Origin: an uncultured Acidobacteriota bacterium
Lineage (GTDB): Bacteria > Acidobacteriota > Thermoanaerobaculia > UBA5066 > Gp7-AA6
Reading direction: 5' to 3'
Length of the DNA: 64,000 bases
Assembly (NCBI GenBank): GCA_963707935.1
Contig: CAVPRN010000005.1
Location: forward strand, 1,426,837-1,490,836
Of this stretch, positions 6,468 through 33,276 are shown piece by piece (the first letter of the stretch is position 1; each line of letters starts with the position of its first letter). Under the pieces are notes generated by a model. It was not told the origin of the DNA. It did no database searches and was given only the letters and a program-made list of their open reading frames with translations. A program made the position numbers and the translations under genes.

Positions 6468-6469
6468 GC

Positions 6470-10603: not shown

Positions 10604-11084
10604 GGTGCGTGAACTCGAAGCCGAGTCGGGCGGCTTCGGCGACCACCCGCTCGACCAATCCCGTCAGGTTTGCTTCCACACTCGGCGAGCGCTCCAGGCC
10701 GAGCTCGATCGATCCGGGCACGAGGCCGAGGAGCACGACGCTCTTCGGGTAGCGCTCCAGCCAGTGGGCGGCGTCGAGCAGATCCGCCACACCGACCTGG
10801 TGCGGCGAGAGGCGGGCGGCCACGGCGGGCGCGACCTCGTGCCCCTCCAGGCGCACGAAGGAACCGACCGGGGCTTCGTCCCGGATGGCGTCCACCAGGA
10901 TCACCCGGTCGGCCACCTCCACTTCCGGCAGAAGCGCCAGGCCGAGAGTCCCGCCGTCGAGCACCCGCGCCCCTTCGGGCGTCTCGTAGAGCGCGCCGAG
11001 CAGCTCCACCGCGGCGACCCCGGTCCCGTCGTCTCCGCAGATCGGATTGCCGAGCCCGAGGACGAGAAGCGGAGTCCTACGCAT
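10539..11084 (-). CDS. hupD: [NiFe]-hydrogenase maturation endopeptidase (HyaD/HupD family)
   Basis: MRRTPLLVLGLGNPICGDDGTGV...VILVDA...LSPHQVGVADLL. The 3' end overlaps the cytochrome c start by about 65 nt, so the exact stop is uncertain. Confidence 0.88.
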   Translation of the reverse strand: MRRTPLLVLGLGNPICGDDGTGVAAVELLGALYETPEGARVLDGGTLGLALLPEVEVADRVILVDAIRDEAPVGSFVRLEGHEVAPAVAARLSPHQVGVADLLDAAHWLERYPKSVVLLGLVPGSIELGLERSPSVEANLTGLVERVVAEAARLGFEFTHREKPRRPDGIRVADGARALGL

Positions 11085-14636: not shown

Positions 14637-14690
14637 GGCCTCCTCCTCTCGCGAGAAGAAATGCTCGCCGACGTCGATCGGCGATTCCGC

Positions 14691-18683: not shown

Positions 18684-19370
18684 GTGCCGGAACGCCCCCC
18701 CATTCCGTTCGACGCCGTCCCGACCCTGGCCCCCCTCTCCGCGGGGGACCGCGCCGCGATTTCTCCTCTGTGCGAACTCGCCGCCTTCGCGAAAGGGGAA
18801 ACGATCTTTCAGGAGGGAGACCCGGCCGACCGGATCTATTTCCTCTTCCTCGGCCGCGTCAAGATCGTCAAGGCCGGACCGGAACGCGACCTGATCCTGG
18901 AGATCCTGGGGCCGGGTGAACCGGTGGGAGCCGTCGCGGCCTTCGAGCGGCGCCCCTTCCCGGCCACGGCCGTCGCGATCGAGCCCTCCGGCCTGATCAC
19001 GATTCCGGAGCGCGCCTTCTTCCAGGCGATCGAGAAGCGCCCCGAGATCACGCGGCGCCTGCTCGCGGGCCTGACGCTTCGCCTGATGTCTCTCAACCGG
19101 CGCATGGCCGACATGACAGGCTCGGTCGAGTACCGGGCGGCCCGCCTCTTCGAGACGCTCGCCTCCCGCATGGGGGAGCGGCGCGCCGAGGGCGTCTTCG
19201 TTCCGCTCCCCCTCTCCCGGCAGGAGATCGCCGATCTGGCCGGGACGACGATCGAGACGGCGATCCGCGTGATGAGCCGCTGGCAGAAGGAGGGGATCGT
19301 CGAGACGGACAAGAAGGGATTCCTGATCCGGAACGCGGAGCTGCTGCGGTCGATCGCCCCCGAGCCCTGA
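18684..19370 (+). CDS. Crp/Fnr-family transcriptional regulator (no N-terminal FNR Cys cluster; Dnr/NnrR-like)
   Basis: 228 aa from the GTG at 18684. cNMP-binding-like domain: GETIFQEGDPADRIYFLFLGRVKI. C-terminal HTH: LSRQEIADLAGTTIETAIRVMSRWQKEGIV. Confidence 0.88.
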   Translation: MPERPPIPFDAVPTLAPLSAGDRAAISPLCELAAFAKGETIFQEGDPADRIYFLFLGRVKIVKAGPERDLILEILGPGEPVGAVAAFERRPFPATAVAIEPSGLITIPERAFFQAIEKRPEITRRLLAGLTLRLMSLNRRMADMTGSVEYRAARLFETLASRMGERRAEGVFVPLPLSRQEIADLAGTTIETAIRVMSRWQKEGIVETDKKGFLIRNAELLRSIAPEP

Positions 19371-19391: not shown

Positions 19392-20648
19392 TCAAGCGGC
19401 CGGCGGGCGCGGCCGCTTCTTCCAGGCGGTGTAGGGGCGCGCGAGGCCTCGAAGCAGAGCGAGCTTCGACCGATAGAGGAAGTCGGCGGGTCCCGCATTT
19501 CCAAGCCCGGCGGCTTCCTCGGGCTGCACGACGAGCGAGACCTCGATCGGAAGGATCCCGACCGGAAGATTCGCGTCGCGGCACGCCTCCCAGAGGTAAG
19601 CGAAGACTTCCCGCATCGCTCCGGGATCGGGAGGCGGCTCGTGCTCGAGCTCGCTCCCGAGCGTCGGCCGGAAGATGCAGACGGTGGGAAAGGCGCCGGC
19701 CCCGACGATCCGATCGATCCCCCGCTTCGTCGATTCAATCGGCTCCAGACCCGCAATGATCTCGCCGGAGACGCGGCCCCGGCCGAGCTTTCCCGCCGTG
19801 TACTCCATCGCCTCGAAGAAGCCGGCCTGCCCGAGCGTCTGTGCCTTTCCGGGGCAGAGGCGCGCGAAGACTTCCGGGTCTTCGAATTCGTAGCAGAAGG
19901 AGAAGTGGTCGGCGCCCGCCTCGATCAGGGCGTCGTACTCGGAGAACTTCCGCCGGGGCACCGGCATGCACTGCACTCCGAGGAACCCTCCGACCCGCTC
20001 CCGGAGCGCCTTCACGAACGGCTCGCACTGGCGCAGGCCGTGGATCGCCTCGAGCTTGTCCACCTCCTCGAAGTGGTAGCCCGTGTTCAAGTGGGTGAAG
20101 ATCGCCCCCGACTCCTCGCGCGCGGCCCGCGCGACCTCGACGACGTCCTCGACGGACTTGCGCGCCTGCTCCGAGACGCCGACGTTCTTTCCGGTCGTGC
20201 AGAACTTGCAGGCGCGCGAGGGGGTCGAGGCCCAGTAGAGGCAGCGGTTCGAGACGTAGACGCCGAGATAGTTCCCCTGCAGCACGCCGACCCGGCTCAT
20301 CTCGATTCCCGAAGAGGTGAGCCGGGAATACCAGGCGGGCTCCTCCGGAACCCGGACCGGATACTCCTCTCCGTCCCGCTCGTCCACGACGCGGTATAGA
20401 CCCCGCTCCTTCACGAGGCGCAGGGGCGAGCGCGCGGCGAATTCCTCCACGACCGGAGCGTTGGCCCAGATCTCCTTGCCGCGGGCGGGGATCACGAGCT
20501 CGAGGCCCGATCCGAGCCCCGCGCGCGTACGCGAAATCCGCCGGCCATCCTCGCCGACCGCGCAGCTCGCGTCGATCCGGATTCCGCGGCAGAAGAGCTC
20601 GATCTCGAGCTCGACCGGTCGAAGCATCGACTCGGACGGTATCGGCAT
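19392..20648 (-). CDS. radical-SAM-like protein with a non-canonical Cys spacing; family unresolved
   Basis: 418 aa. The candidate cluster motif is NRCLYWASTPSRACKFCTTG (C-x10-C-x2-C). TIM-barrel-like alternation follows it. There is an N-terminal domain of about 130 aa with unknown function. Confidence 0.5.
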   Translation of the reverse strand: MPIPSESMLRPVELEIELFCRGIRIDASCAVGEDGRRISRTRAGLGSGLELVIPARGKEIWANAPVVEEFAARSPLRLVKERGLYRVVDERDGEEYPVRVPEEPAWYSRLTSSGIEMSRVGVLQGNYLGVYVSNRCLYWASTPSRACKFCTTGKNVGVSEQARKSVEDVVEVARAAREESGAIFTHLNTGYHFEEVDKLEAIHGLRQCEPFVKALRERVGGFLGVQCMPVPRRKFSEYDALIEAGADHFSFCYEFEDPEVFARLCPGKAQTLGQAGFFEAMEYTAGKLGRGRVSGEIIAGLEPIESTKRGIDRIVGAGAFPTVCIFRPTLGSELEHEPPPDPGAMREVFAYLWEACRDANLPVGILPIEVSLVVQPEEAAGLGNAGPADFLYRSKLALLRGLARPYTAWKKRPRPPAA

Positions 20649-20850: not shown

Positions 20851-21084
20851 ATGAACCGCCGCAAGAAAGGAGAAGCCTCGACGACCGTGAGCGGCCCCGT
20901 TTTCCTCTCCCGCGGGCAGGTGGCGCAGCTCTTCGGCGTCTCCCTCTCGACCGTGACGCGCTGGGCCCGGCTGGGGCTGCTCCCCGCCGTCCGCACACCG
21001 GGCGGCCACTACCGCTACCCGGCCGACGAAACGCGCCGCGCCGCCGGGCGCGCCGCCACGAGCGACCTCGCGAGGCTCGACTGA
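20851..21084 (+). CDS. small helix-turn-helix DNA-binding protein (excisionase/MerR-like HTH)
   Basis: 77 aa. FLSRGQVAQLFGVSLSTVTRWARLGLLPAVRTPGGHYRY. Its stop is 1 nt before the next ATG. Confidence 0.7.
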   Translation: MNRRKKGEASTTVSGPVFLSRGQVAQLFGVSLSTVTRWARLGLLPAVRTPGGHYRYPADETRRAAGRAATSDLARLD

Positions 21085-21085
21085 G

Positions 21086-23044
21086 ATGCCGATCGCCGTC
21101 CGCCTCCCCGATCTCTCGCACTGGAAGGCGCAGGTGGCGTGCCAGGCGGGCTGCCCCGTCCGGACCGACGCGGGTCGCTACGTGCAGCTCATCGCCGAGG
21201 GGCGCGACGAGGAAGCGTACCTGGTGGCCCGGGCGCCCAACCCGTTCGCCTCGGTCTGCGGGCGGGTCTGCGCCGCTCCATGCGAGGACGCGTGCCGCCG
21301 CGGGGCGATCGACGCGCCGATCGCGATCCGCGCGCTCAAGCGCTTCGTGACCGAGAGGTACGGCGTCGAATCGGTCCACCCCGACGCGCAGAACCGGCTG
21401 CGCGAGAGCCTGATCGCCGAAGGGAACCGATACCCGGGCCACCTCCCCGTCCACCCGATCGGCTCGACCCGGCCCCCGGCGGGCCCCGCGCGAAGGAAGG
21501 TCGCGGTCATCGGGGCGGGGCCCGCCGGTCTCTCTGCCGCGCACGATCTGGCGCTGCTCGGCTACTCCGTGACGGTCTTCGAGGCCGCCGAAGAGCCGGG
21601 GGGAATGATGCGCTTCGGGATCCCCGAGTACCGGCTCCCCCGCACGCTGATCCGCGCCGAGATCGACAAGATCGTCGCGCTCGGCGTCGAGCTCCGGCTC
21701 CGGTCCGGTCTCTCCCCCCGCTTGGGGCTCTCGGAGCTCCGGGCGCAGGGCTTCGAGGCGATCTTCCTCTCGATCGGCGTCACCCGGGGGCGCGATCTTC
21801 AGGTGCCGGGCGTCGAGCTCGACGGAGTCGTCAAGGCGGTCGATTACCTGCTGAACATCAACCGGGGATACCGGATGGATCTCGGGCAGCGGGTCGTCGT
21901 CATCGGCGGCGGGTTCGTCGCGTTCGACGCGGCGCGGACGGCGCTGCGGTCCGGTCGCAAGGATCTGGAGGTGGAGCTCGAGCGCCTCGACGAGGCGGAA
22001 GACCACCGGATGAAGGAGGCTCTCGACTCTGCCCGCGCGGCCCTGCGCGGGGGCGCGACCCGGGTGACGATCGTTTCACTCGAGAGCTTCGATGAGATGC
22101 CGGTCCTCAAGACGACGCAAGGCCACGAGGAGTTCGAGGAAGCGAAAAAAGAAGGGGTCGTCTTCCAGACGCGCCGCGGGCCGAAGCGCTTCCTGGGCGA
22201 CGGCAAGCTCGAAGGGATCGAGCTCCGGCGAGTTCTGTCGGTTTTCGACGAGAAAGGCCGCTTCGCGCCGACCTACGAGGACGCAGACATCACGCGTCTC
22301 GAGTGCGACGCCTGCATCCTCGCGATCGGCCAGCAGCCCGACCTCTCGTTCCTCAAGCCCGAGGATGGCGTCGCACTGACTCCCGGCGGAACGATCCGGG
22401 TGGACGCCGAGACGCTCGCGACCTCGGCGGCCGGAGTCTTCGCCGGCGGCGACGTCGCCTTCGGCCCGCGCAATCTGATCGAGGCCGTTGCCAACGGGAA
22501 GCGGGCCGCGCGGTCGATCCACGAGCACCTCTCCCGAGAGGCCGCGGCCACGCGCGCGACGATCGAGATCGAGACCCTGCCGACGGCGGCTTACCGCCAG
22601 ATCGCCGGGTTCGAGATCCTGGACCGGGTGGTGCCGCCGACCCTCGAGCTCTCGCGGCGCACCGGCATCGCCGAGGTCGAAACGGGCTACGACGAGGTCG
22701 AGGCCCGTCTCCAGGCCGCGCGCTGCCTCGTCTGCCACGTGCAGACGATCTACGACCCCGAAGCCTGCGTGCTCTGCAACCGCTGCGTGGACGTCTGTCC
22801 CGAGTTCTGCCTCGCGCTCGTCCCATTCGAAGCGCTCGACCTGCCCGAAGCGGAGCGCCGGGCGCTCGCCGAGAGGGCCGAGGCGGACGGGCTGCCGCTC
22901 TCCGCAATGGTCAAGGACGACGAGCGCTGCATCCGGTGCGGGCTGTGCGCCATCCGCTGCCCGACCGACGCGATGACGATGGAGCGGTTCTCGATCACGG
23001 AGCGGTTCTTCGCTCCCGCCGGAGAAGGAGGGGTTGCCGCATGA
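21086..23044 (+). CDS. GltD-family NAD(P)H-dependent flavoprotein with an N-terminal FeS domain and a C-terminal 2x[4Fe-4S] ferredoxin domain
   Basis: 652 aa. N-terminal domain: CQAGCPVRTD..NPFASVCGRVCAAPCEDACRR. Two dinucleotide folds: VAVIGAGPAGLSAAHDLA and VVVIGGGFVAFDAA. AGGDV. C-terminal domain: CLVCH..CVLCNRCVDVCP..CIRCGLCAIRCP. Confidence 0.85.
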   Translation: MPIAVRLPDLSHWKAQVACQAGCPVRTDAGRYVQLIAEGRDEEAYLVARAPNPFASVCGRVCAAPCEDACRRGAIDAPIAIRALKRFVTERYGVESVHPDAQNRLRESLIAEGNRYPGHLPVHPIGSTRPPAGPARRKVAVIGAGPAGLSAAHDLALLGYSVTVFEAAEEPGGMMRFGIPEYRLPRTLIRAEIDKIVALGVELRLRSGLSPRLGLSELRAQGFEAIFLSIGVTRGRDLQVPGVELDGVVKAVDYLLNINRGYRMDLGQRVVVIGGGFVAFDAARTALRSGRKDLEVELERLDEAEDHRMKEALDSARAALRGGATRVTIVSLESFDEMPVLKTTQGHEEFEEAKKEGVVFQTRRGPKRFLGDGKLEGIELRRVLSVFDEKGRFAPTYEDADITRLECDACILAIGQQPDLSFLKPEDGVALTPGGTIRVDAETLATSAAGVFAGGDVAFGPRNLIEAVANGKRAARSIHEHLSREAAATRATIEIETLPTAAYRQIAGFEILDRVVPPTLELSRRTGIAEVETGYDEVEARLQAARCLVCHVQTIYDPEACVLCNRCVDVCPEFCLALVPFEALDLPEAERRALAERAEADGLPLSAMVKDDERCIRCGLCAIRCPTDAMTMERFSITERFFAPAGEGGVAA

Positions 23045-23547
23045 AGGACGAGAAGGGGCGCCGCGAGTTTCTCTGGAAGCTCGGCATCGGGAGCGGGATC
23101 GCGGCGCTCGGCGCGCAGACGGTCGCCTCGATGCGCTCGCTCGTGCCCAACGTCTCCTACGACGCGCCCACGACGGTTCGACTCGGGATGCCGCAGGACT
23201 TCCCGGACGGCCTGAAGTTCCTGCCGGACCAGAGGCTCTTCGTGTTCCGCGACGGGAATACGTTCCACGCCATCTCGGCCGCGTGCACCCACCTCGGCTG
23301 CACGGTGCGCGCCGAAGCGCTCCCGCAGGTCGAGACGAAGGACATCGCGGGACAGCGGCTGCGCCTCACGCACCGTTTCCTCTGCCCCTGCCACGGTTCC
23401 CGATACTCGGGCGACGGCTCGAACGTCTCCGGCCCGGCCCCGCGGCCGCTCGCCTGGTACCACCTCTCGGTCTCGCCCGACGACGGACAGCTCGTCGTCG
23501 ATCTTGCGCGGCCGGTCGGCAGCGATTTCCGACTGACGGTTGCCTGA
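23041..23547 (+). CDS. Rieske [2Fe-2S] subunit of a Rieske/cytochrome b complex, with Tat signal
   Basis: 168 aa. GRREFLWKLG. CTHLGC ... CPCHGS. The ATG overlaps the upstream stop (ATGA). Confidence 0.9.
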   Translation: MKDEKGRREFLWKLGIGSGIAALGAQTVASMRSLVPNVSYDAPTTVRLGMPQDFPDGLKFLPDQRLFVFRDGNTFHAISAACTHLGCTVRAEALPQVETKDIAGQRLRLTHRFLCPCHGSRYSGDGSNVSGPAPRPLAWYHLSVSPDDGQLVVDLARPVGSDFRLTVA

Positions 23548-23557
23548 AGGAGTCCTC

Positions 23558-24910
23558 ATGAGCGCCGAACAGAAGACGAGAACCGCCACCCCGGTCCGGT
23601 CCGCCCCCGGAGTGCGCCCGAAGCGGCTCTGGACCTTCCGGCCCGCGTCCGACCGGGAGGCCGGCGACGCCGTCGTCTCGAATTTCCTCCTGCACTGGTT
23701 CCCCGCGAAGTGCTATCGGGCTTCGCTCGAGTGGAACTACTCTTTCTGGCTCGGAACGGTCTCGGCCGCGCTGCTCCTGCTCCTCATCGTCTCGGGTCTG
23801 CCGCTCCTCTTCCTCTACATCCCATCCGTCGAACGCGCCTACGCGTCGGTCAAGGACATCGAGTTCGTCGTCACGTTCGGCTCCTGGATTCGCGCGGTCC
23901 ACCGCATCTCCGCGCACCTGATGGTCGCGGCGGTGTTCCTCCATCTCGTCCGTGTCTTCCTGACCGGCGCCTACAAGAACGGCGCCGGGAGAAACCAGAA
24001 GCGGCAGTGGAACTGGGTGCTGGGAGTCGCGATGCTCCTCGCGACCCTGTTCCTCTCGTTCACGGGCTACCTGCTTCCGTGGGACCAGCTCGCCTACTGG
24101 GCCGTGACCGTCGGGACCAACATCGCCTCCTCGGTTCCGTGGGTCGGTCCGACGATCCGGGAGCTGCTGATCGGCGGGCGGACGATCGAACAGCCCACTC
24201 TGATCCGTTTCTACGTGCTCCACGTCTTCTTCCTGCCGATGATCGTGGGAGCCCTCTTCGCGTACCACATGTGGCGCGTCCGCAAGGACGGCGGGCTCGC
24301 GAGCGCCGACCGGGAGGCCGCCCGGGCGGAAAAGAAGAGTGCGGCGCCTTCGAAGACGAAAACCTACACGCTCCTCGGGATCGCCCGGGGCACGGCGCCG
24401 CAGGTCCGCGCCTCCGCGCTCGAGACGGCCGACGCGATGGTCAACTCCGTCTCGGACCTGACACGCCGCGCGGCGATCGTCGTCCTCGGCACGATCGCGG
24501 TCGTCGGCATCCTCTCGGTTTTCGTTCGCTCGCCCCTCGAAGAGCCGGCCAACCCGATCATCACGCCGAACCCGGCCAAGGCGCCCTGGTACTTCCTCTG
24601 GCTCCAGGAGATCGTCACCGACACGACCATCCGAATCGGATCCTTGACGATCAACGGCGCCTTCCTGGGGGGCGTGCTGCTGCCGGCGATCCTGCTCCTT
24701 CTGCTCACGGCCTGGCCATGGCTCGACAGGAGCCCTGCCGCCGCGGCCGGCCTTTGGTTTGCCGAGAGCCGCCGCCGCCAGAATCTGGTCTTCCTCCTCT
24801 TCGTCGCGGCCGTTCTCGTGCTGACCGTCGTCGGCACGTTCCTGCGCGGGCCTTACTGGCACTTCTACTGGCCGTGGCAGCCCTGGCCCGAGCTGCCCGC
24901 GAGGATCTGA
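23558..24910 (+). CDS. cytochrome b (b6-like N-terminal part fused to a subunit-IV-like part)
   Basis: AAGGAG lies 6 nt upstream of the ATG at 23558. His pairs: AVHRISAHLMVAAVFLHL and VLHVFFLPMIVGALFAYH. The Qo-region motif reads KAPWYFLW instead of PEWY. Confidence 0.9.
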   Translation: MSAEQKTRTATPVRSAPGVRPKRLWTFRPASDREAGDAVVSNFLLHWFPAKCYRASLEWNYSFWLGTVSAALLLLLIVSGLPLLFLYIPSVERAYASVKDIEFVVTFGSWIRAVHRISAHLMVAAVFLHLVRVFLTGAYKNGAGRNQKRQWNWVLGVAMLLATLFLSFTGYLLPWDQLAYWAVTVGTNIASSVPWVGPTIRELLIGGRTIEQPTLIRFYVLHVFFLPMIVGALFAYHMWRVRKDGGLASADREAARAEKKSAAPSKTKTYTLLGIARGTAPQVRASALETADAMVNSVSDLTRRAAIVVLGTIAVVGILSVFVRSPLEEPANPIITPNPAKAPWYFLWLQEIVTDTTIRIGSLTINGAFLGGVLLPAILLLLLTAWPWLDRSPAAAAGLWFAESRRRQNLVFLLFVAAVLVLTVVGTFLRGPYWHFYWPWQPWPELPARI

Positions 24911-24911
24911 C

Positions 24912-26156
24912 ATGGAAAAGCGCACCGATTCGCCGCTTCCCAAGACGGACCGGCCGATCCTGGCGGTCGTCGGCGTGCTGCTCGTCGTCTCGACCGCGCT
25001 CTTCGCCTGGAGCGACCGGCGGCACGACTGGCGCTACTACCAGTACGCCTTCCGCGGCCTCGTCGCCGAGAAGCTCGGTGCGGAGAGGGCGAAGACGATC
25101 CCGCGCGGCGTCCAGCAGATCTGGGCGCCGGAGCTGCGCCGGGCGGACCGCTGCATCACCTGCCACCAGGCGGTCCTCTGGAAGGGCTTCGAGAACGCCG
25201 AAGAGCCCTTCCGCACGCATCCGGCCGCTCCGCTCGCGAACCACCCGGTCGAGAAATTCGGCTGCACGTCCTGCCACGGCGGGCAGGGCTGGGCGATCGA
25301 CACGGCCGAGGCGCACGCGCCGACCGAGCACTGGGAGGAGCCGCTGCTCGGCCAGGAGCTCGGCGAGGCCTATTCCCTCGCCGACGACAAGAAGGCCCTC
25401 CTGCAGATGAACTGCAACACCTGCCACCGGTACGACCGCGAGACTCCGGGCGCCGTGGCGATCAACCTGGCGAAGAAGCTCGTCTCCGAGAAGGGCTGCC
25501 GGGCCTGCCACGTGATCAACGGCCGCGGCGGGACGATCGGGCCGGATCTCACCTGGGTCGGCGACAAGGCGCCGGAACAGTACGAGTACGGCCGGCTCTC
25601 GGGGCAGAAGACCGCCTTCGCCTGGCACGTCGCCCACTTCAAGGATCCGCGGGCGCTCGTGCCGGACACGGTCATGCCCAACTTCCACCTCTCGACCGGG
25701 CAGGCGCAGGCCCTGGCGATGCTCGCGCTCTCCTGGCGCAAGGCCCCGGTGCCGGCCGACTACCGGCCGGGCCTCCCGCGCACGGACCCGCAGACGCCGG
25801 CGGAGATCGCCGAGGAGCAGCGGATGAAGACGGGGCCCGGCGCCTGGTTCGTCCAGACGGGCTGCTTCGTCTGCCACTCGATCTCGTCGCTCGGCGTCAG
25901 GAGCCCGGCGCAGATCGGCCCCGACCTCTCGACCGCCGTCGAGGACACCCAGACGCGCTTCGGCCGCACGGTGGACGACTTCCTGCGCGAGCCGACCGGA
26001 ACGATGTCGGTCGTCCTTTCGCGCCAGATCGTGCTCACCCCCGAACAGAAGGCGACCGCGGTCGAGAAGCTGCGCGAGGCCTTCGCCGAGCACCAGCGCC
26101 AGAAGGCCGCGGCCGCCGCGACCGGAAAGTCCGGAACCGATCACGCAACGCCTTGA
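24912..26156 (+). CDS. membrane-anchored pentaheme c-type cytochrome
   Basis: N-terminal TM helix. Five CxxCH motifs: CITCH, CTSCH, CNTCH, CRACH and CFVCH. The last two sit in class-I-like contexts (..GPDL). Confidence 0.88.
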   Translation: MEKRTDSPLPKTDRPILAVVGVLLVVSTALFAWSDRRHDWRYYQYAFRGLVAEKLGAERAKTIPRGVQQIWAPELRRADRCITCHQAVLWKGFENAEEPFRTHPAAPLANHPVEKFGCTSCHGGQGWAIDTAEAHAPTEHWEEPLLGQELGEAYSLADDKKALLQMNCNTCHRYDRETPGAVAINLAKKLVSEKGCRACHVINGRGGTIGPDLTWVGDKAPEQYEYGRLSGQKTAFAWHVAHFKDPRALVPDTVMPNFHLSTGQAQALAMLALSWRKAPVPADYRPGLPRTDPQTPAEIAEEQRMKTGPGAWFVQTGCFVCHSISSLGVRSPAQIGPDLSTAVEDTQTRFGRTVDDFLREPTGTMSVVLSRQIVLTPEQKATAVEKLREAFAEHQRQKAAAAATGKSGTDHATP

Positions 26157-26172
26157 AGAAGGAGGAACCTCG

Positions 26173-28044
26173 ATGAAACGCAGAACGAGAATCGGATGGA
26201 CCTGGGCGGCCGCCGCGGCCGTCGTGGTCGCCGCGGCGCTCTCGGGGCGGTGCGCCCCCTCGGCCCCGAAAGCGGCGAAGAAGGCCGCGGCCGGCGCCTC
26301 GGACCTGGCCGTCGCGGCACAGAAGACCTACGTCGCGCCGGGAGACCTCGACGAGTTCTACATGTTCGCCTCGGGCGGGCACTCGGGACAGGTCTACGTC
26401 TACGGGATCCCGTCGATGCGACACCTCTCGACGATCCCCGTCTATACCCCCTACCCCGCCACCGGCTACGGCTTCGACGACGAGTCGAAAGCCATGCTCG
26501 GAAGCCTGACGTGGGGGGACGTGCATCATCCGTCGCTCTCGGAGACGGGCGGCGACTACGACGGCCGCTGGCTCTTCGTCAACGACATGAACGGCCGCGT
26601 CGCACGCGTGGATCTGCGCGATTTCAAGACGAAGCAGATCCTCGGCCCCCTGCCCAACGTCTCGGGCAACCACGGCTCGGCCTTCGTCACGCCGAACACG
26701 GAGTACTCCATGATGGCGTCCCGCTTCTCGATCCCGATCCCGAAAGGGACCTCCGTGCCGATCGAGAAGTACGCGACCGACTACAAGGGCGTCCTCGTGG
26801 GCGTGAAGATCGACCCGAAGAGCGGCCAGATGTCGCTCGGCTGGGAGATTCTGACGCCTCCGTTCGACTGGGACCTGGGCGACGCCGGCAAGAAGGTCTC
26901 CGACGGCTGGATGTTCTGGACCGCCTACAACACCGAGCGCGCCACCGGGAAGCTCGAGGTCACTTCGGCCCAGCGCGACCGCGACTACATCGCGGCCGTG
27001 GACTGGCGCGCCGCGGAGAAAGCGGCGGCCGAAGGGAAGGGCGACATGATCGGCGGCGTCAAGGTCATCGATCCCGGGAAAGTTCCCGGTGTCGTGTACC
27101 TGATGCCCTGCGGCAAGTCGCCGCACGGCGTCGACGTCTCCCCCGACGGCAAGTACATCGTCGGCTCGGGCAAGCTCCAGGGCGTCACGACCGTCTTCAA
27201 CTTCGAAAAGCTCCAGACCGCGATCCGCAACAAGGACTTCACCGGGGACGAGGATGGCATCCCGGTCATCAAATACGAGTCGATCAAGGACGCCGAAGTT
27301 CCGGTCGGACTCGGGCCCCTGCACACCCAGTTCGGCCCCGACGGCTTCGCCTACACCTCGCTCTTCGTCGATTCCGCCATCGCCAAGTGGAAGCTCGGCA
27401 CCTGGGAAGTCGTGGACAAAGTCCCGATGTCCTATTCGATCGGGCACCTCGCCGCGGCGGAAGGCGACACCTGCTCGCCCAAGGGCAAGTACCTGGTCGG
27501 CCTGAACAAGCTCTCCCACGGCCGGCACCTCTCGGTCGGGCCCTCGCAGCCCGAAAGCTCGCAGCTCGTGGACATCACGGAAGAGAAGATGAAGATCCTG
27601 ATGGACGCCTTCACGGAGCCGGAGCCGCACTACGCGCAGATCGTCTCGGCCTCCCGCTTGAAGCCGATCGAGGTCTATCCGAAGGAGGAGAACAAGCACC
27701 CGCTCGCGATCTGGGATGTCAAGGACGCGGGCGTCACCCGTCAGGGCAACGAAGTCACGGCCAGGGTCGTGCTCGTCCGCTCGACGATCTCTCCGACGGC
27801 GATCGAGGTCAACCAGGGAGACACGGTCAAAGTCGCGATGACGAATATCGAGCAGACGACCGACGAGCTCCACGGCTTCGGTCTGCTCGACTACAACATC
27901 AACATCGTCGTGGATCCCGGCGAAACCAAGACCGTCACCTTCAAGGCGGACAAGGCCGGGGTCTTCCCCTACTACTGCACGAATTTCTGCTCGGCGCTGC
28001 ATCAGGAGATGCAGGGGTACCTGATCGTGAAGGGCAAGTCGTAA
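26173..28044 (+). CDS. nosZ: nitrous-oxide reductase NosZ, clade II (atypical) type
   Basis: 623 aa. GAAGGAGG RBS. DLDEFYMFASGGHSGQVYVYGIPSMR, several His-containing propeller motifs, and a CuA site DELHGF..CTNFCSALHQEM. nosB lies immediately downstream, and no nosR or nosX is present in the window. Confidence 0.95.
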   Translation: MKRRTRIGWTWAAAAAVVVAAALSGRCAPSAPKAAKKAAAGASDLAVAAQKTYVAPGDLDEFYMFASGGHSGQVYVYGIPSMRHLSTIPVYTPYPATGYGFDDESKAMLGSLTWGDVHHPSLSETGGDYDGRWLFVNDMNGRVARVDLRDFKTKQILGPLPNVSGNHGSAFVTPNTEYSMMASRFSIPIPKGTSVPIEKYATDYKGVLVGVKIDPKSGQMSLGWEILTPPFDWDLGDAGKKVSDGWMFWTAYNTERATGKLEVTSAQRDRDYIAAVDWRAAEKAAAEGKGDMIGGVKVIDPGKVPGVVYLMPCGKSPHGVDVSPDGKYIVGSGKLQGVTTVFNFEKLQTAIRNKDFTGDEDGIPVIKYESIKDAEVPVGLGPLHTQFGPDGFAYTSLFVDSAIAKWKLGTWEVVDKVPMSYSIGHLAAAEGDTCSPKGKYLVGLNKLSHGRHLSVGPSQPESSQLVDITEEKMKILMDAFTEPEPHYAQIVSASRLKPIEVYPKEENKHPLAIWDVKDAGVTRQGNEVTARVVLVRSTISPTAIEVNQGDTVKVAMTNIEQTTDELHGFGLLDYNINIVVDPGETKTVTFKADKAGVFPYYCTNFCSALHQEMQGYLIVKGKS

Positions 28045-28108: not shown

Positions 28109-28758
28109 ATGAAGGCCTACTTCGAGCGCAGCAGCCGGTTTCTCCAGACGCCGCTGGACGTGGCGCCGCGCGCCCTCCTGCTCGCGGCCGTGCTGCTCCT
28201 CGTGGCAGCGACGCTCTCCCCCTCTGGAAGCTGACGATGTTCGCCCCGCAGTACCCGGAGGGGCTGCGCATGGAGATCTACAGCTACAAGCTCGACGGCG
28301 GCAACGCGGGGCAGGACATCCGCGAGATCAACGTGCTCAACCACTACATCGGCATGAGGGAGCTCTCGACGGCGGAATTCACGGAATTCAAGTGGATCCC
28401 CTTCGTCGTCGGCGCGCTGGCGCTTCTCTGTCTGCGCACGACGGTGCTCGGGAGGATGGGAACCCTGGTCGATCTCTTCGTGCTCTACATCTACTTCGGG
28501 CTTTTCTCTCTCTGGTCGTTCGGCTACAAGCTCTACGTCTTCGGGCACAACCTCGACCCGAAGGCGTCCGTGAAGGTGCCGCCGTTCATGCCTCCCCTCT
28601 TCGGGTCGAAGAAGCTCGCGAACTTCGAGGTCTACTCCTACCCGGCGTTCGGCGCGTATGCCCTGGCCCTCGTCGCCGCGGTCCTCGGGTTGGCGCTTTG
28701 GGCGGCCTGGCGGCAGGGGCGCTCCGAGGAGGCCGCGGAAGCGCGTTCGGCGGGATGA
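28109..28758 (+). pseudogene. nosB: NosB-like integral membrane protein; frame break near 28220 (C-run)
   Basis: MKAYFERSSRFLQTPLDVAPRALLLAAVLLLVAATL | PLWKLTMFAPQYPEGLRMEIYSYKL...; the multi-TM rest of the protein is intact. It sits directly after clade II nosZ. The stop overlaps the nosD ATG. Confidence 0.7.
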
Positions 28759-30071
28759 ACCTCGCTCTGCTCCTTCTGCTCTTCGAGCTTTCGCGCACGA
28801 CCGCCGCCGGCGCCGTTTCGCCGCTCCAGGCACGCGTGGACGCCGTGCCGGCGGGCGCGCGCCTCGAGGTCGGGCCCGGCGTGTATGCCGGCGATCTCCG
28901 GATCGACCGGCCGCTCACGCTCGTCGGGCGCGGCCGGCCTCTTCTTCTCGGCTCGGGGACGGGCACGGTCGTCACGATCTCGGCCGACGCCGTTGCCTTC
29001 GAAGGCTTCGACATCGACGGCCGGGGCGGCGGGGATCTCGGCCGCGACTCCTCGGGCATCTTCGTCGCGGGCAAGCGGGCCGCGATCCGCTCCTGCCGCA
29101 TCCGCGGCTCCCTCTTCGGGATCTACCTCCGCGAGGCGGACGGCTCGACGGTCGAGGAGTGCCTTGTGCGCGGGGTCGAGGGCAAGGATCCGGGCGAGAA
29201 GGGGTCCGGGTTCCACGTCTGGAACACGCAGGGCTTCCGCCTCGCCGGCAACACGGCGGTCGGCGTGCGCGACGGCTTCTACATCCAATCCTCCTCGCAC
29301 GGCGAAATCGTCCGAAACACGGCGCGGGACCTGCGCTACGGCCTCCACTACATGTTCTCGGACGACAACGTCTTCGAGGACAACACCTTCGAGAACGGCG
29401 CCGCGGGCACCGCGCTCATGTACTCGAAGCGGATCGTGTTCCGGCGCAACCGCTTCCTGCACAACCGCGGCTTCGCCTCGGTCGGCCTCCTGCTGAAGGC
29501 CTGCGACGAGGTCACGGCGGAGTCGAATCTGATCGCCGACAACGCCCGCGGGATCTTCCTCGAGGGCTCCTACCGCAACGTTTTCCGCGGCAACGTCGTG
29601 GCCGAGTCCGACACGGCGATCGTCCTCTACGACTCGTGCGGGGAGAACCGGTTCGAGGGCAACTCCTTCTTCGCGAACCTGACGCCGCTGACCCTGATCG
29701 GCCGCCGGACCGACACGGTCTTCGACGGCAACTACTGGTCGGAGGCGGGCGAGCCCGATATGGATGGCGACGGACGCGCGGACCGGCCCTATCGGCTTTC
29801 CTCGGTCTTCGACCACTTTCGAGGGAATCTGACGGCCGCGGATCTCTTTACGCAGGGCTTCGCGGCCGAGGCCCTGGCGGCGGCCGAGCGCGCCTTCCCC
29901 GTGCTCGAGCCCGTGCCGGTCGAAGACCGCTCGCCGCTCGCCCGGCCGCCGCGGCTTCCGGCGGTTCCGCGAGCGCCCTCGCGGGCCGGGACCGCGCACG
30001 CGGCGGGCCTCGCCGGCTCCGTCGCGGCTTTCCTCGCGGGCGCCGCCGCACTCGTCCGGGGGATCCGGTGA
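28755..30071 (+). CDS. nosD: NosD, periplasmic right-handed beta-helix copper-insertion accessory protein
   Basis: 438 aa. Signal peptide, then repeated beta-helix units (GIFVAG..IRGSLFGIYL..GFHVWN..DGFYIQSS..YGLHYMFS..AGTALMYS..VGLLLKAC..GIFLEGS). Confidence 0.9.
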   Translation: MNLALLLLLFELSRTTAAGAVSPLQARVDAVPAGARLEVGPGVYAGDLRIDRPLTLVGRGRPLLLGSGTGTVVTISADAVAFEGFDIDGRGGGDLGRDSSGIFVAGKRAAIRSCRIRGSLFGIYLREADGSTVEECLVRGVEGKDPGEKGSGFHVWNTQGFRLAGNTAVGVRDGFYIQSSSHGEIVRNTARDLRYGLHYMFSDDNVFEDNTFENGAAGTALMYSKRIVFRRNRFLHNRGFASVGLLLKACDEVTAESNLIADNARGIFLEGSYRNVFRGNVVAESDTAIVLYDSCGENRFEGNSFFANLTPLTLIGRRTDTVFDGNYWSEAGEPDMDGDGRADRPYRLSSVFDHFRGNLTAADLFTQGFAAEALAAAERAFPVLEPVPVEDRSPLARPPRLPAVPRAPSRAGTAHAAGLAGSVAAFLAGAAALVRGIR

Positions 30072-30967
30072 TCCGCTTCGAGGAATTCTCCAAGTCCTTC
30101 GGCGGCAGACTCGCCGTGCGGGGCCTGACCCTCGGGGTCGAAGCGGGCGAAGCGGTGGCGCTCCTCGGACCGAACGGCTCGGGCAAGACGACGACGCTGA
30201 AGGCGGCGGCGGGGCTGCTGCGCCCGTCGGGCGGGACCGTCCGAATCGGCGATCCTCCCCGGCCGGCGCTCGAGCCCGAGGCGCGGCGAGCGATCTCCTA
30301 TCTTCCGCAGCGCGTCCGGTTCCCGGAGTCGCTGACCGCCTCCGAGACCCTCGAGTTCTACCGGCGGCTGCGAGGCGCCCGCCCCGAGCGAATTCCGGAA
30401 GTGCTCCGTTTCGCATCCTTGAACGGGGCCTCCCGCGAGCCGATCGCGACGTACTCGGGGGGCATGGTCCAACGCCTCGGGCTCGCGGTCGTGCTCCTCG
30501 CCGAGGCGCCGATCCTCCTTCTCGACGAGCCGACGGCGGCGCTCGATCCGGACGGCCTCTGCGCCTTCTACGGCCTGGTCGAGCGGCGGCGCCGCGAGGG
30601 ACACACGCTGCTCTTCACGTCGCATCAGCTGGGAGACGTCGAGCGACTCGCGGACCGTTTCGCGCTTCTGGTCGAAGGGAGGCTCGCCGCGGCGTTGACG
30701 CGGACGGAGCTTTCCGACCGGCTTTCCGCGCGGGGCGTCCTGCGGCTGCGCCTCGATCGCCGCCCGCCGGGTCTGCTCGAGCGCCTGCGGGCGCTCTCGC
30801 CCCGCGCCGTGTGGTCGGGCGACGAGCTCATCTGCCCCGGACCCGCGGCCGACCGCCCTCGCGCGCTCGACCTCGTCCGCGAGGCGGGGGCCGAGATCCG
30901 GGGCCTGACGGCGGAGGAGGGGCGGCTCGACGTTCTCTATCGGGAACTCGTCGAGGAGAAGTCATGA
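30068..30967 (+). CDS. nosF: NosF, ABC transporter ATP-binding protein
   Basis: The GTG overlaps the nosD stop (GTGA). Walker A GPNGSGKTT, signature YSGGMVQRL and Walker B ILLLDEP. Confidence 0.9.
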   Translation: MIRFEEFSKSFGGRLAVRGLTLGVEAGEAVALLGPNGSGKTTTLKAAAGLLRPSGGTVRIGDPPRPALEPEARRAISYLPQRVRFPESLTASETLEFYRRLRGARPERIPEVLRFASLNGASREPIATYSGGMVQRLGLAVVLLAEAPILLLDEPTAALDPDGLCAFYGLVERRRREGHTLLFTSHQLGDVERLADRFALLVEGRLAAALTRTELSDRLSARGVLRLRLDRRPPGLLERLRALSPRAVWSGDELICPGPAADRPRALDLVREAGAEIRGLTAEEGRLDVLYRELVEEKS

Positions 30968-31449
30968 GGGCGCGCGCGCGGGTCTCCGCCGCGATCTTCC
31001 TCGTCCTCCTCGCGTGCGGGCGGGGCGCGCCGCCTCCGGCCGAGCTCGACACGCGAAACGAGCTCTGCGCCTTTTGCCGGATGCCGGTCTCGGATCGGCG
31101 CCTGGCCGCCCAGATCCTGTCCCGCGGAGCGGACCCTCGCTTCTTCGACGACCTCGGTTGCCTCGCCGGCCTGCTCGCCCGCGACGGGCGGCCGGCCGGC
31201 TCGGCGATCTACGTGACGGACCACGCGACCGGACGATGGGTTCCGGCGGAGTCGGCCGTCTATACGCGGTCGGCCGTCCTCCAGACGCCGATGGGCTCGG
31301 GCCTGCTCGCGCATGCCGACGTCGTCTCGCGGGACGCCGACTCCGCGGCGCGGGGAGGAACATCTCTCCGATTCGAAGATACTCTCTCAGGCACCGGCCC
31401 GGTTTCCGGAGGCCCGCCGAAGGCGCCGGGCCAGGAGGTGACGCGATGA
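30964..31449 (+). CDS. nosL: NosL, copper chaperone lipoprotein
   Basis: Lipobox VLLACG. CAFCRM motif. ATGA overlap with nosF. Confidence 0.85.
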   Translation: MRARARVSAAIFLVLLACGRGAPPPAELDTRNELCAFCRMPVSDRRLAAQILSRGADPRFFDDLGCLAGLLARDGRPAGSAIYVTDHATGRWVPAESAVYTRSAVLQTPMGSGLLAHADVVSRDADSAARGGTSLRFEDTLSGTGPVSGGPPKAPGQEVTR

Positions 31450-31898
31450 ACAAGGACGTTCCCGAGTCCCTGAAGATCGAGCACGACGAACTGCGCGAGC
31501 AGCTCGACCGGGCCGCCGCCGCGGGCGGGCGCACGGGCGAGGCGGCGCGCCGCGTGCAGAAGGTACTGCGGCCCCACGTCCTCCTCGAGGAGGAGTTCGC
31601 CGTCCCGCCCCTGTCCCTCCTGCCGCGCCTCGCCCGCGGCGAAGTGACGCCCGACATGCGGCGCTTCCAGCACCTGGCCGAGACGCTCAAGGCGGAGCTG
31701 CCGCGGATGCTGGAGGAACACGGGTTGATCGTCGAGGCCCTCCGCGGGCTCATGCAGGCGGCGCAGGAGGAGGGACAGCCGGGGTACGCGCAGTTCGCGC
31801 GCAAGATGATCCTCCACGCACAGACCGAGGAGGAGATCCTCTACCCGGCCTCGATCCTCGTGGGCGAGATCCTCCGGGCGAGGCTCGGAAAACCGTGA
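31446..31898 (+). CDS. hemerythrin-like (HHE cation-binding) domain protein
   Basis: 150 aa. H/E motifs IEHDELRE, LRPHVLLEEE, LEEHG and ILHAQTEEE. It overlaps both nosL (ATGA) and nosY (GTGA). Confidence 0.75.
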   Translation: MNKDVPESLKIEHDELREQLDRAAAAGGRTGEAARRVQKVLRPHVLLEEEFAVPPLSLLPRLARGEVTPDMRRFQHLAETLKAELPRMLEEHGLIVEALRGLMQAAQEEGQPGYAQFARKMILHAQTEEEILYPASILVGEILRARLGKP

Positions 31899-32743
31899 GC
31901 CGGGCCGCGACGATTTCGTCGCCTCTGCTGCTCTGCGCGCGGCAGGAGCTGCGCCTGGCGGCGCGCTCCCGCTGGACCCAGGTGTTCGCGCTGCTTTTCG
32001 GTTTCCTCGCTCTTCTCGTCGCCGGTTCCGGCTACGTCCTCTCGGGAGGGACGGGGATGCAGGACTTCGCACGCACGTCCGCGTCGCTCCTGCAGCTCGT
32101 GCTCCTCCTCGTGCCTCTGACCGCGCTCGTGATCGGCGTCCTGTCGCTCGCACCGGAGCGGGGAGAGGCGGAGCTTCTCTACTCGCAGCCGGTGCCGCGC
32201 GGCACGATCCTGCTCGGGTCGCTCCTCGGGCTTTTCGGCGCGCTCGTCGCGGCGCAGGCCTGCGGGCTCGGTGCCGCGGGGCTGCTGCTCTTCGCCCGGT
32301 CGGGTCCGTTCGGTTTCGGCGCCTATGCCCTCCTCTTCGCCGCGTCGCTGCTCGTCACCGCCATCTTTCTCGGGATCGCCGCGCTCCTCGCCTCGGGCGG
32401 GCCCGGACGGCGGACCCGTTCTCTGGCGCTCGCCGTCGTGGTCTGGTTCACGGTCGAAGTGCTCTTCGACGTGGCGGCCCTGGGAGCCGCGACGCTCCTG
32501 CCGTCGGGAGCCGGCTCGCGGGCGCTGATCCTGGCGGCTCTCGTCAACCCGATCGGGGCGATCCGAACGGGAGCATTGCTCGGCATCCAGGGCACGACCG
32601 CCTTCGGAGCCGCCTCCCTCGCATTCCTGCGCTTCACCCGGGGGCCGGCCGGAGCCGGGGCGCTTCTCCTCGTCTCCGTCCTCCTCTGGGCCGCGCTGCC
32701 GGCGGCGCTCGCGGCGCGCCGGCTCTCCCGCGCCGACCTCTAG
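31895..32743 (+). CDS. nosY: NosY, ABC-2 type permease
   Basis: 282 aa. Six predicted TM helices. It is the last gene of the nos cluster. Confidence 0.85.
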   Translation: MSRAATISSPLLLCARQELRLAARSRWTQVFALLFGFLALLVAGSGYVLSGGTGMQDFARTSASLLQLVLLLVPLTALVIGVLSLAPERGEAELLYSQPVPRGTILLGSLLGLFGALVAAQACGLGAAGLLLFARSGPFGFGAYALLFAASLLVTAIFLGIAALLASGGPGRRTRSLALAVVVWFTVEVLFDVAALGAATLLPSGAGSRALILAALVNPIGAIRTGALLGIQGTTAFGAASLAFLRFTRGPAGAGALLLVSVLLWAALPAALAARRLSRADL

Positions 32744-32871: not shown

Positions 32872-33276
32872 ATGATGGAGCCAGCAAAACCGGTCGTGTT
32901 CGAGTCCCTGTCCCGCCCGGAGGCGATCGACATGCTTCGCACGGCGCTCGAAGGGTTGACCGACCGCGAGCACTGTCTTTGCGAGGCGGCCGGGCGGCTC
33001 GGCGTCTTCTGCGGCGGCTTCCGGGGCCTCTCGGACGAGCAGTTTCGGCAGCGCTTCGACTGGATCGCGCGAAAGCGCCCCGAGGCTTCGCGAGCCGAGC
33101 TCGAGCAGCTTGTCAGCCTCTATCACGCCGGGCGGCAGGAAGTGGCCGGCGCGCGGCTCTGCTGCGACGTCGAGACCCGCGAGCACTGCGCCTGCGACGG
33201 CTGGAACGCCTTCGACAACCGGGCGCTCGAGCGGCTCTGCCGCGAGGTGACTGGCCGCGAGGTTCGGATCCTCTGA
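32872..33276 (+). CDS. conserved 5-Cys hypothetical protein, paralog of 895..1515
   Basis: 134 aa. SRPEAIDMLRTALEGLTDREHCLCEAAGRLGVFCGGFRGL...LCCDVETREHCACDGWNAFDNRALERLC. Confidence 0.7.
   Translation: MMEPAKPVVFESLSRPEAIDMLRTALEGLTDREHCLCEAAGRLGVFCGGFRGLSDEQFRQRFDWIARKRPEASRAELEQLVSLYHAGRQEVAGARLCCDVETREHCACDGWNAFDNRALERLCREVTGREVRIL

Follow-up and report, generated by a model that had tools for sequence, protein, structure and literature searches.

An iron-sulfur flavoprotein and a Rieske/cytochrome b module homologous to an anammox complex are encoded together with clade II nosZ in Acidobacteriota and Myxococcota

Anammox bacteria were reportedly proposed by Kartal et al. in 2013 to possess Rieske/cytochrome b complexes with an NAD(P) oxidoreductase subunit, and the function of complexes bearing such a subunit has been open since that proposal. 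Clade II gene clusters for nitrous oxide (N2O) reductase are said, after Sanford et al. (2012), to include dedicated Rieske, cytochrome b and cytochrome c genes; to our knowledge, the other clade II clusters (Wolinella with NosGH/NosC1C2, Bacteroidota, Gemmatimonadota) are without the flavoprotein gene described here. This gene lies in a 64,000-nt stretch of DNA (the window) with a G+C content of ~70% from an uncultured Acidobacteriota bacterium (Thermoanaerobaculia; UBA5066; Gp7-AA6; assembly GCA_963707935.1, CAVPRN010000005.1:1,426,837-1,490,836, forward strand). It encodes an iron-sulfur (FeS) flavoprotein and is followed by genes for a Rieske protein, a cytochrome b, a pentahaem cytochrome c (cytochrome c5 below) and NosZ of clade II. 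The core of this operon, known here from its genes alone, is homologous to the Kuste4569-72-type complex of Candidatus Kuenenia.

In Kuenenia stuttgartiensis all subunits of the complex co-migrate, and an AlphaFold 3 model gives an electron path from haem over four FeS clusters to flavin adenine dinucleotide (FAD), with His43 of Kuste4571 binding an extra b haem at the dimer interface (Hauser et al. 2025, PMC12954380). The Rieske protein Kuste4569 has a potential of +303 mV; this high potential together with a menaquinone pool was argued to push haem bL low enough for NAD(P)+ reduction (PMC12954380). Starting from the Kuste4569 sequence, we arrived at a Candidatus Kuenenia contig (L081) and compared its products with the window proteins by blastp. 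The flavoprotein is 35% identical to its counterpart over 634 aa (E-value 9e-100), the Rieske protein 37% (4e-29), and the cytochrome b 44% to b6 (6e-56) and 33% to subunit IV (2e-23); the N-terminal part of cytochrome c5 has a weak match to the hexahaem cytochrome c (6e-6). On the Kuenenia contig the order is Rieske, flavoprotein (581 aa), b6, subunit IV, hexahaem cytochrome c and an HAO-like octahaem protein. In the PDB the top two matches of the window Rieske protein are 9rk4 and 9rk3, the structures of Kuste4569 and Kustd1480 of K. stuttgartiensis (PMC12954380). The preliminary description of this DNA, made from the letters alone, had named the anammox complexes as the closest parallel; the parallel turns out to be a true homology, with all four core subunits 33-44% identical and Kuste4569 and Kustd1480 at the head of the Rieske matches.

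Related loci were collected by scanning one genome per species for relatives of the flavoprotein; 350 stretches were found and the best 80 were analysed in tblastn searches with the window proteins, gene counts being restricted to loci with sufficient downstream DNA. The order flavoprotein-Rieske-cytochrome b-cytochrome c5-NosZ is kept in every one of the best 80 loci that extends far enough. The Rieske gene was found in 77/78 loci, cytochrome b in 74/74, cytochrome c5 in 68/69 and NosZ in 64/64, and the two exceptions (Rieske and cytochrome c5) both lie near contig ends. Downstream of NosZ a nosB-like gene and, further on, nosY follow in the related loci. The median junctions between flavoprotein, Rieske, cytochrome b, cytochrome c5 and NosZ genes are -4, 10, 1 and 30 nt, and the flavoprotein and Rieske genes are translationally coupled in most of 75 genomes; outliers in junction length are probably frameshifts in long-read metagenome-assembled genomes (MAGs) or a matter of start-codon choice. 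The arrangement is not due to chance, and the association with clade II nosZ is both close and conserved. The synteny that the preliminary description had left to a wider survey does recur, while its counter-case, the same flavoprotein-Rieske pair beside unrelated genes, was seen only among distant paralogous subfamilies; in the present orthologue group NosZ follows in all 64 loci that reach it. At least 64 species-level genomes and, with 350 relatives found, probably several hundred have the four core subunits firmly tied to NosZ.

For most hosts of the best 80 loci the only name is that of a MAG of Thermoanaerobaculia, Vicinamibacteria or other Acidobacteriota (Holophagales and unclassified Acidobacteriota in the record titles); the remaining titles give four Anaeromyxobacteraceae, with isolate Anaeromyxobacter sp. 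PSR-1 among the members of this family, one Myxococcales MAG and one Binatia MAG. Database relatives of the flavoprotein number >8000; the top 120 are 75-85% identical to it, and the named ones are Thermoanaerobaculia or Acidobacteriota MAGs. Between Anaeromyxobacter and this Acidobacterium identity is 69-81% over the whole block, including the nosB-like gene, nosD, nosL and nosY, which points to transfer as one nos module. The 90% cluster of the cytochrome b orthologue includes those of the A. dehalogenans strains 2CP-C, 2CP-1 and K; in 2CP-C and 2CP-1 the cytochrome b has the accessions ABC82174.1 and ACL64898.1, respectively. It was in A. dehalogenans that respiration of N2O by a clade II enzyme was established.

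In the window the six genes from the regulator to nosZ run head to tail on the + strand. The first encodes a small helix-turn-helix (HTH) protein of MerR/excisionase/BldC-like type (20851..21084, 77 aa; Pfam MerR 5e-11, HTH_17 3e-10), which scores 59 bits against the NCBIfam BldC model, under the cut-off of 77; among the best 80 loci an HTH gene 5′ of the flavoprotein gene is present only in the closer, mostly Thermoanaerobaculia-like ones. One nucleotide separates its stop codon from the ATG of the flavoprotein gene (21086..23044, 652 aa). The TGA of the latter overlaps the ATG of the Rieske gene (23041..23547, 168 aa) in the string ATGA, with a GGAG..AAGGAGG stretch before it. Cytochrome b (23558..24910, 450 aa, with an alternative TTG start at 23540) and cytochrome c5 (24912..26156, 414 aa) follow, and 16 nt with an AAGGAGG Shine-Dalgarno sequence lead from the cytochrome c5 stop to the ATG of nosZ (26173..28044, 623 aa). 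NosZ is of the Sec type, scoring 902 bits against TIGR04246 (cut-off 625) vs 432 bits against the Tat-type (twin-arginine translocation) model TIGR04244, with PDB NosZ matches down to 1e-97. Promoter and terminator scans gave nothing beyond the shuffled expectation and hence no information on transcript boundaries. Read from the DNA, open reading frame (ORF) coordinates, Pfam and NCBIfam profiles, motifs and hydropathy, the gene plan given in the preliminary description stands throughout: six collinear genes, the Rieske ATG overlapping the flavoprotein stop, nosZ 16 nt behind the cytochrome c stop, a small HTH protein, a fused cytochrome b with an APWY motif, an anchored cytochrome c with five CxxCH, a clade II nosZ, and a 652-aa protein with an N-terminal FeS domain, dinucleotide folds and a C-terminal 2x[4Fe-4S] domain.

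The flavoprotein has neither a transmembrane segment (as judged, here and below, by a hydropathy scan) nor a signal peptide. Its layout starts with a Fer4_20 domain (residues 17-91), continues with Pyr_redox_2 (138-471), in which the FAD fold (GAGPAG) is followed by a second dinucleotide fold (GGGFVAFD, then VSLE), and ends with a domain of two [4Fe-4S] clusters (two Fer4 matches, 555-630). An insertion of ~35 aa after GGGxxAxD is found in the nos-linked flavoproteins. The nearest solved relatives are NADPH-FAD-[4Fe-4S] modules of the Nfn and Stn kind: NfnA of Bfu-type NfnABC (9bov/9bp5, 1e-73), NfnA 9n5u, NfnI-L 5jca, NfnB 4ylf and StnC 8oh5; GltD 2vdc ranks after them. Curated models are all missed: the scores are 263 vs a cut-off of 472 for TIGR01316, 396 vs 516 for PRK12771, and ~184 each vs 448 and 483 for TIGR01317 and TIGR01318. 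A GltB-like gene was not seen among the window ORFs scanned, which were a part of all ORFs. The assignment to the GltD family in the preliminary description thus holds for the fold; as a family name it fails, with scores below every GltD/GltA cut-off and with NfnA and NfnB as the nearest solved relatives.

Conservation was assessed in 77 flavoprotein sequences (the window and 76 orthologues). Eighteen cysteines are invariant, six of them N-terminal, the others being C410, a CLxC pair, C575 and those of two CxxCxxCxxxCP motifs; their number is enough for four [4Fe-4S] clusters. One of the invariant strings, CLVCH (residues 547-551, window 22724-22738), was considered as a c-haem site and rejected, since the flavoprotein resides in the cytoplasm and the His is not kept by other subfamilies, where the counterparts are CLKCW, CLRCW, CLKCN or CLKCD and only the two Cys are general. 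These two cysteines probably serve as FeS ligands, like the CLEC string of NfnA. A NosR-like maintenance role of the flavoprotein was set aside as well: it bears neither an FMN_bind nor a NosR-type domain, and low-potential electrons are beyond what the Rieske/c-haem branch can supply. The motif after the second Rossmann strand, V-S-L-E, whose Glu is residue 333 of the window protein, is invariant in all 77 nos-linked sequences, and the same position reads V-Y-R-R in Kuenenia, in an Armatimonadetes locus (L083, below) and in NfnA 9n5u. By the general rule for Rossmann folds, NAD is preferred with an acidic residue in this place and the 2′-phosphate of NADP with Arg. SLE in place of YRR points to NADH over NADPH, and the nos-linked flavoprotein probably uses NAD(H). 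Of the 'NAD(P)H' label of the preliminary description the dinucleotide fold remains, with the cofactor probably to be narrowed to NADH.

The Rieske protein is a membrane-anchored Tat substrate with a [2Fe-2S] domain (Pfam Rieske 8e-12; RREFL, CTHLGC, CPCHGS). In the nos-linked orthologues the Ser of the CPCHGSRY box is 100% conserved, the Tyr at least 90%, and CTHLGC is conserved; an insertion of 15 aa between the two cluster-binding boxes is specific to the nos-linked type. From the Ser/Tyr signature, read in sequence only, the cluster is predicted to be of high potential. Cytochrome c5 carries one transmembrane helix (residues 16-34) and five CxxCH motifs that are invariant in 64 sequences (the window and 63 orthologues), with Pfam matches to Cytochrom_C, FixO and c3/c7-like pieces. 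The PDB search gave no close solved structure for it, and its N-terminal part matches the octahaem subunit of a Terriglobia cluster (below) in blastp at 2e-32. Probably it is the wire from the Rieske protein to NosZ.

Cytochrome b is a fusion of b6 and subunit IV (Cytochrome_B 59-244, Cytochrom_B_C 330-428) with seven transmembrane segments in a 4+3 arrangement; the nearest NCBIfam models are ExtP and ExtQ, both under cut-off. The haem-b ligands His115/129/222/237 align to b6 structures (spinach and Chlamydomonas b6), and the motif of the quinol-oxidizing (Qo) site is NPAKAPWYFLW. In 69 sequences (the window and 68 orthologues) His46 and His120 are invariant. Trp64 takes the position of b6 Cys35, the cysteine of haem cN, and there is no Cys conserved anywhere in the 69 sequences, so that a haem cN site is absent; this loss would accord with a quinone-reducing site that is altered or missing at the cytoplasmic face. 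A cysteine of the Cys35 type is present in the Kuenenia and Armatimonadetes loci. The wider cytochrome b clade was sampled in a metagenome scan seeded with an alignment of b6 parts, which returned 80 loci. His46, His120 and APWY were considered as markers of coupling to a flavoprotein and rejected, as most of these 80 loci have no flavoprotein and yet carry NP(A/S)KAPWY and LH.HP.K, and His120 is Gln in two flavoprotein-bearing loci. The preliminary description had taken APWY as a hint about the quinol site of this particular operon; as a special hint it loses its force, being common to Kuenenia and to a large b6-like clade that mostly has no flavoprotein.

Further flavoprotein-Rieske-b6-subunit IV loci with other partners were reached through Rieske proteins ~50% identical to Kuste4569. 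Terriglobia-type paralogous clusters (L082 5243-16186; L084 4425-14922; L086 3619-13691), which are held by both Terriglobia and metagenome contigs, run from an Rrf2 regulator (L082, L084) over a ~480-aa protein and an amicyanin-like cupredoxin to flavoprotein, Rieske, b6 and subunit IV, followed by a ~705-aa cytochrome c (eight CxxCH in L082), a small cytochrome c and a ~450-aa protein; one variant carries a 1040-aa cytochrome c. In these clusters no known terminal reductase was recognised, and the ~480-aa and ~450-aa proteins match no family. The Acidobacteria-type paralogues share an x-L-E motif, the insertion and the lack of a haem cN cysteine with the nos-linked type. On the Armatimonadetes contig L083 (8253-16798) a flavoprotein of the YRR type, Rieske, b6, a 339-aa subunit IV and two multihaem cytochromes precede a NapA/Fdh-alpha/NasC-like molybdopterin oxidoreductase, which adds a third type of terminal enzyme to those that follow the flavoprotein-Rieske/b module. 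The pairing of flavoprotein and Rieske occurs in four different terminal-enzyme contexts, and in anammox bacteria.

Most of the 80 loci from the metagenome scan have the order Rieske-b6-subunit IV-large cytochrome c-cupredoxin with no flavoprotein within up to 20 kb, and a full-length flavoprotein is present in ~5. In ~15 loci a stand-alone 2x[4Fe-4S] ferredoxin of ~135 aa lies directly upstream of b6; it contains the strings …IDQSECIMCEGCVDICPWKCIHM…DDDVCTRCALCVDRCPTGVI… and aligns to residues 517-648 of the window flavoprotein. The order ferredoxin-b6-subunit IV-Rieske is found in L117, L120, L133, L148, L151, L155, L164 and L166 (at ~9500-9900 in each). Such a ferredoxin looks like a minimal cytoplasmic FeS partner of the Rieske/b6 complex, and its place beside b6 suggests that the C-terminal di-cluster domain of the flavoprotein may partner with this kind of cytochrome b.

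Our tentative proposal, to which we give somewhat less than an even chance, is that flavoprotein, Rieske protein, cytochrome b and pentahaem cytochrome c form a single anammox-type membrane complex dedicated to NosZ, which bifurcates the electrons of quinol towards NAD+. On the periplasmic side, menaquinol (MKH2) would give up its electrons at the Qo site (NPAKAPWY). The first electron would pass from a Rieske cluster of the high-potential type over the five c haems to CuA of NosZ and on to N2O, while the second would cross the membrane over haems bL and bH, possibly with an extra haem between the two His46 of a dimer. It would then enter the cytoplasmic flavoprotein at the C-terminal di-cluster domain and proceed via the N-terminal clusters to FAD, where NAD+, favoured over NADP+ by the motif, would be reduced. 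The net reaction would be 2 MKH2 + N2O + NAD+ -> 2 MK + N2 + H2O + NADH + H+, with charge separation. The topology fits this complex, with a cytoplasmic flavoprotein, a Tat-dependent Rieske protein, an anchored cytochrome c5 and a Sec-type NosZ. With a CPCHGSxY box as in Kuste4569 and a menaquinone pool, the energetics would be the same as those argued to allow NAD(P)+ reduction in Kuenenia (PMC12954380).

Several points weigh against bifurcation, or against the complex as such. NADH specificity and a seat of the flavoprotein on the cytoplasmic face of cytochrome b are predictions, and attachment to cytochrome b is suggested indirectly, by operon context, homology, translational coupling, recurrence of the pairing and the stand-alone ferredoxin homologue. 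A structural model of the flavoprotein alone was of too low quality to be relied on (AlphaFold 2, mean predicted local distance difference test score, pLDDT, of 54.5, with FeS domains <50; alignment of 31 sequences, 75-85% identity). With APWY and His46 widespread in loci that have no flavoprotein, these features are no evidence for a flavoprotein link. Quinol bifurcation and NADH input would be allowed equally by the proteins as encoded. The cultured relatives of the hosts are largely organoheterotrophs, which should be rich in NADH and have little need to make it from quinol. The energetics are marginal: at standard potentials the step from MK (~-70 mV) to the Rieske cluster (~+300 mV) would gain ~0.37 V, that from MK to NAD+ would cost ~0.25 V plus work against the membrane potential, and the very high potential of N2O/N2 would help only via an oxidised c-haem chain. 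A [NiFe]-hydrogenase stands beside the operon in only three of the 80 loci, those of the closest genomes (L001, L003, L006), and its adjacency was rejected as a general rationale in which H2 would feed the MK pool and reverse flow would yield NADH.

The same complex could also run in reverse, which we consider possible though somewhat doubtful. An NADH-oxidising flavoprotein would then feed the b haems from the cytoplasm, and either menaquinone would be reduced near haem bH in an NADH-fed Q cycle or the electrons would otherwise reach the Qo/Rieske branch, so that the operon would encode a self-contained NADH:N2O oxidoreductase chain bypassing complex I. The invariant SLE, with Glu for Arg-Arg, points to the catabolic carrier NAD(H), the host taxa have the NADH-rich relatives just mentioned, and the reaction would be strongly exergonic with no special tuning required; synteny, homology and topology, as evidence for a flavoprotein subunit, count equally for this direction. 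What such a chain would lack in the cytochrome b alignments is a place to reduce quinone, the canonical haem cN site being absent and no quinone-reduction site having been identified, while a quinone-free flow from bL to the Rieske protein would be the short circuit that bc complexes normally suppress. A high-potential-type Rieske protein working with menaquinone is predicted by bifurcation and would be superfluous for a simple NADH dehydrogenase, and the homologous anammox complexes have been interpreted in the opposite direction (PMC12954380).

The flavoprotein might instead be co-expressed and unattached, a soluble NfnB/GltD-like oxidoreductase with some other cytoplasmic job in N2O respiration, working with ferredoxin or another partner in, possibly, redox balancing, cofactor supply, or repair and maintenance. 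This appears improbable: its closest solved relatives (Nfn, Stn, GltD) are indeed soluble and the cytochrome b has many close relatives that do without a flavoprotein, but translational coupling to the Rieske gene extends over most of the genomes compared, the pairing recurs in the four terminal-enzyme contexts and in anammox bacteria, the Kuenenia subunits co-migrate (PMC12954380), and the di-cluster domain has a stand-alone counterpart encoded beside b6 elsewhere. Most improbable to us is a general-purpose quinol:cytochrome c oxidoreductase that stands beside nosZ by happenstance. The 72-85% identity of flavoprotein and partners across classes and phyla would suit an enzyme of general use; NosZ in 64/64 loci, short junctions, a Shine-Dalgarno sequence of its own before nosZ, the 69-81% identity of a block that reaches to nosD, nosL and nosY and implies a single module transfer, and the ties of paralogous subfamilies to other specific terminal enzymes all speak for a dedicated one.

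Should quinol bifurcation apply, N2O respiration would be coupled to NAD+ reduction in a large, soil-dominant group of N2O reducers by a menaquinol-to-NADH route that is independent of the proton-motive force and builds membrane potential; at this breadth the claim is doubtful. If it is true, what has been proposed for anammox would turn out to be a modular device of general use, attached to different high-potential N-oxide reductases. Higher growth yields have been reported for some clade II N2O reducers, and quinol bifurcation might contribute to them. Anammox bacteria are hard to grow in pure culture and to manipulate genetically, and a homologue in cultured N2O-respiring Anaeromyxobacter strains offers an experimentally tractable model. 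Acidobacteriota clade II nosZ was the dominant nosZ group in 61/172 soil metagenomes (PMC13122619); given this dominance, the route of electrons and energy into NosZ bears on models of the soil N2O sink.

The legends of published nos gene maps colour an 'Fe-S' (iron-sulfur protein) class beside Rieske, cyt-b and cyt-c (PMC11096178, PMC13122619), a class in which the present flavoprotein gene is presumably drawn. In full-text literature searches we found no link of this gene to NAD(H)/FAD or to anammox complexes, and an earlier mention in subscription reviews is possible. The statement in the preliminary description that the flavoprotein lies outside the standard picture of N2O respiration can be kept in so far as no description in terms of NAD(H) was found, and has to be qualified in so far as, by the legends of those maps, 'Fe-S' genes have already been placed in nos clusters. 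Its names in databases are 'FAD-dependent oxidoreductase', 'glutamate synthase beta subunit-like' and 'formate dehydrogenase beta subunit'; like the 'Fe-S' of the maps, they do not convey its role.

Downstream of nosZ the + strand continues with the accessory nos genes. A membrane protein of 173 aa with ~3 transmembrane segments (28237..28758) is called NosB-like by position only; it has no Pfam or NCBIfam family match, and the same position is kept in most of the best 80 loci. NosD (28698..30071, start codon uncertain; TIGR04247 371 bits vs a cut-off of 300, Pfam NosD 2e-39) is followed by a NosF-type ABC ATPase between nosD and nosL/nosY (30068..30967; Pfam ABC_tran and NCBIfam ABC ATPase families), the lipoprotein NosL with a CAFCRM motif (30964..31449; Pfam NosL 31.6 bits vs 24) and, after a hemerythrin-domain gene, a NosY-type ABC-2 permease (31895..32743; Pfam ABC2_membrane_2 2e-14) that is found downstream in most of the best 80 loci. 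The hemerythrin-domain gene (31446..31898; Pfam Hemerythrin 3e-08) overlaps each neighbour, nosL and nosY, by 4 nt and is present in only 12/80 loci; its product could be a sensor of O2 or NO, or serve as a protective accessory of the nos maturation set. Within the nos block every gene is intact and matches its orthologues over the full length. Elsewhere the window has apparent indel errors or pseudogenes, one hydrogenase gene being frameshifted and several hyp genes matching their family profiles only in part.

After nosY lies a gene for a Cys-rich cytoplasmic protein of 134 aa without a family match (32872-33276); some loci have ORFs of weak similarity close to the operon, upstream and on the opposite strand. 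A PAS-LuxR (GerE) regulator gene (33296-33952, - strand) is convergent with the end of the nos block and is present in 2/80 loci. On the upstream side a gene for a 'variant' radical SAM protein (19392-20648, - strand) is divergent from the operon. Beyond it are genes for a Crp/Fnr regulator (18684-19370), a flavoprotein of the geranylgeranyl-reductase family (17485-18678) and a fused ScdA_N/NnrS protein (15615-17402). The NnrS, geranylgeranyl-reductase-family and radical SAM genes recur upstream in many Thermoanaerobaculia-like loci, and Crp/Fnr in 23/80. The [NiFe]-hydrogenase cluster occupies window positions 5400-14640 on the - strand, with the small subunit (13521-14636), the large subunit, a maturation protease and HypF/HypD/HypE-like ORFs. 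Near 13000 a frameshift divides the gene of the large subunit; together with the partial hyp profiles, this indicates assembly indel errors or decaying genes.

Compared with known systems, the locus departs most plainly from canonical bc1/b6f complexes, whose PEWY motif and mono-haem c1/f are replaced by NPAKAPWY and a pentahaem cytochrome. With b6f and the Firmicute/Heliobacterial b6c complexes it shares the b6 fold, four His ligands, a three-segment subunit IV part and a b6f-type Rieske protein; it differs in the missing haem cN cysteine, in APWY for PEWY or PDWY, in an N-terminal extension of ~13 residues with a conserved His, and in having a flavoprotein partner and a pentahaem cytochrome c where those complexes have cytochrome f or a dihaem cytochrome c. 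The flavoprotein resembles the family of NfnB, Bfu-type NfnA and GltD in its N-terminal Fer4_20 domain, FAD fold and dinucleotide fold, to which it adds the C-terminal 2x[4Fe-4S] domain and SLE for YRR; in place of GltB, small-NfnA or Bfu partner genes it is accompanied by a membrane set of Rieske and cytochrome b. With clade II nos clusters the locus shares the Sec-type NosZ, nosDFYL and upstream genes for Rieske, b and c cytochromes; the membrane-protein gene at the nosB position is a putative further counterpart.

The nearest relatives are the anammox sets Kuste4569-4574 and Kustd1480-1485, which likewise bring together an FeS flavoprotein with a C-terminal di-cluster domain, a Tat-Rieske protein, b6 plus subunit IV and an anchored multihaem cytochrome c. 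The Qo motif NPAKAPWY is identical in Kuenenia and here, and the Rieske box CPCHGS.Y is the same as in Kuste4569. His43 of Kuste4571 corresponds to His46, a motif that also occurs in relatives with no flavoprotein and is not diagnostic. Both loci encode a high-potential N-oxide reductase directly downstream, an HAO-like octahaem protein in Kuenenia and NosZ here. The flavoprotein gene precedes the Rieske gene here and follows it in Kuenenia; b6 and subunit IV form one polypeptide, with three helices in the subunit IV part, whereas in Kuenenia they are separate and subunit IV has five helices; and the C-terminal extension of subunit IV on the Kuenenia and Armatimonadetes contigs is absent. Trp replaces the haem cN cysteine of Kuenenia, SLE with the ~35-aa insertion replaces YRR, the Rieske protein has the 15-aa insertion of the nos-linked type, which Kuenenia lacks, and the cytochrome c is pentahaem instead of hexa- or octahaem. 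In contrast to anammox bacteria, the hosts are Acidobacteriota and Myxococcota, some of them in pure culture.

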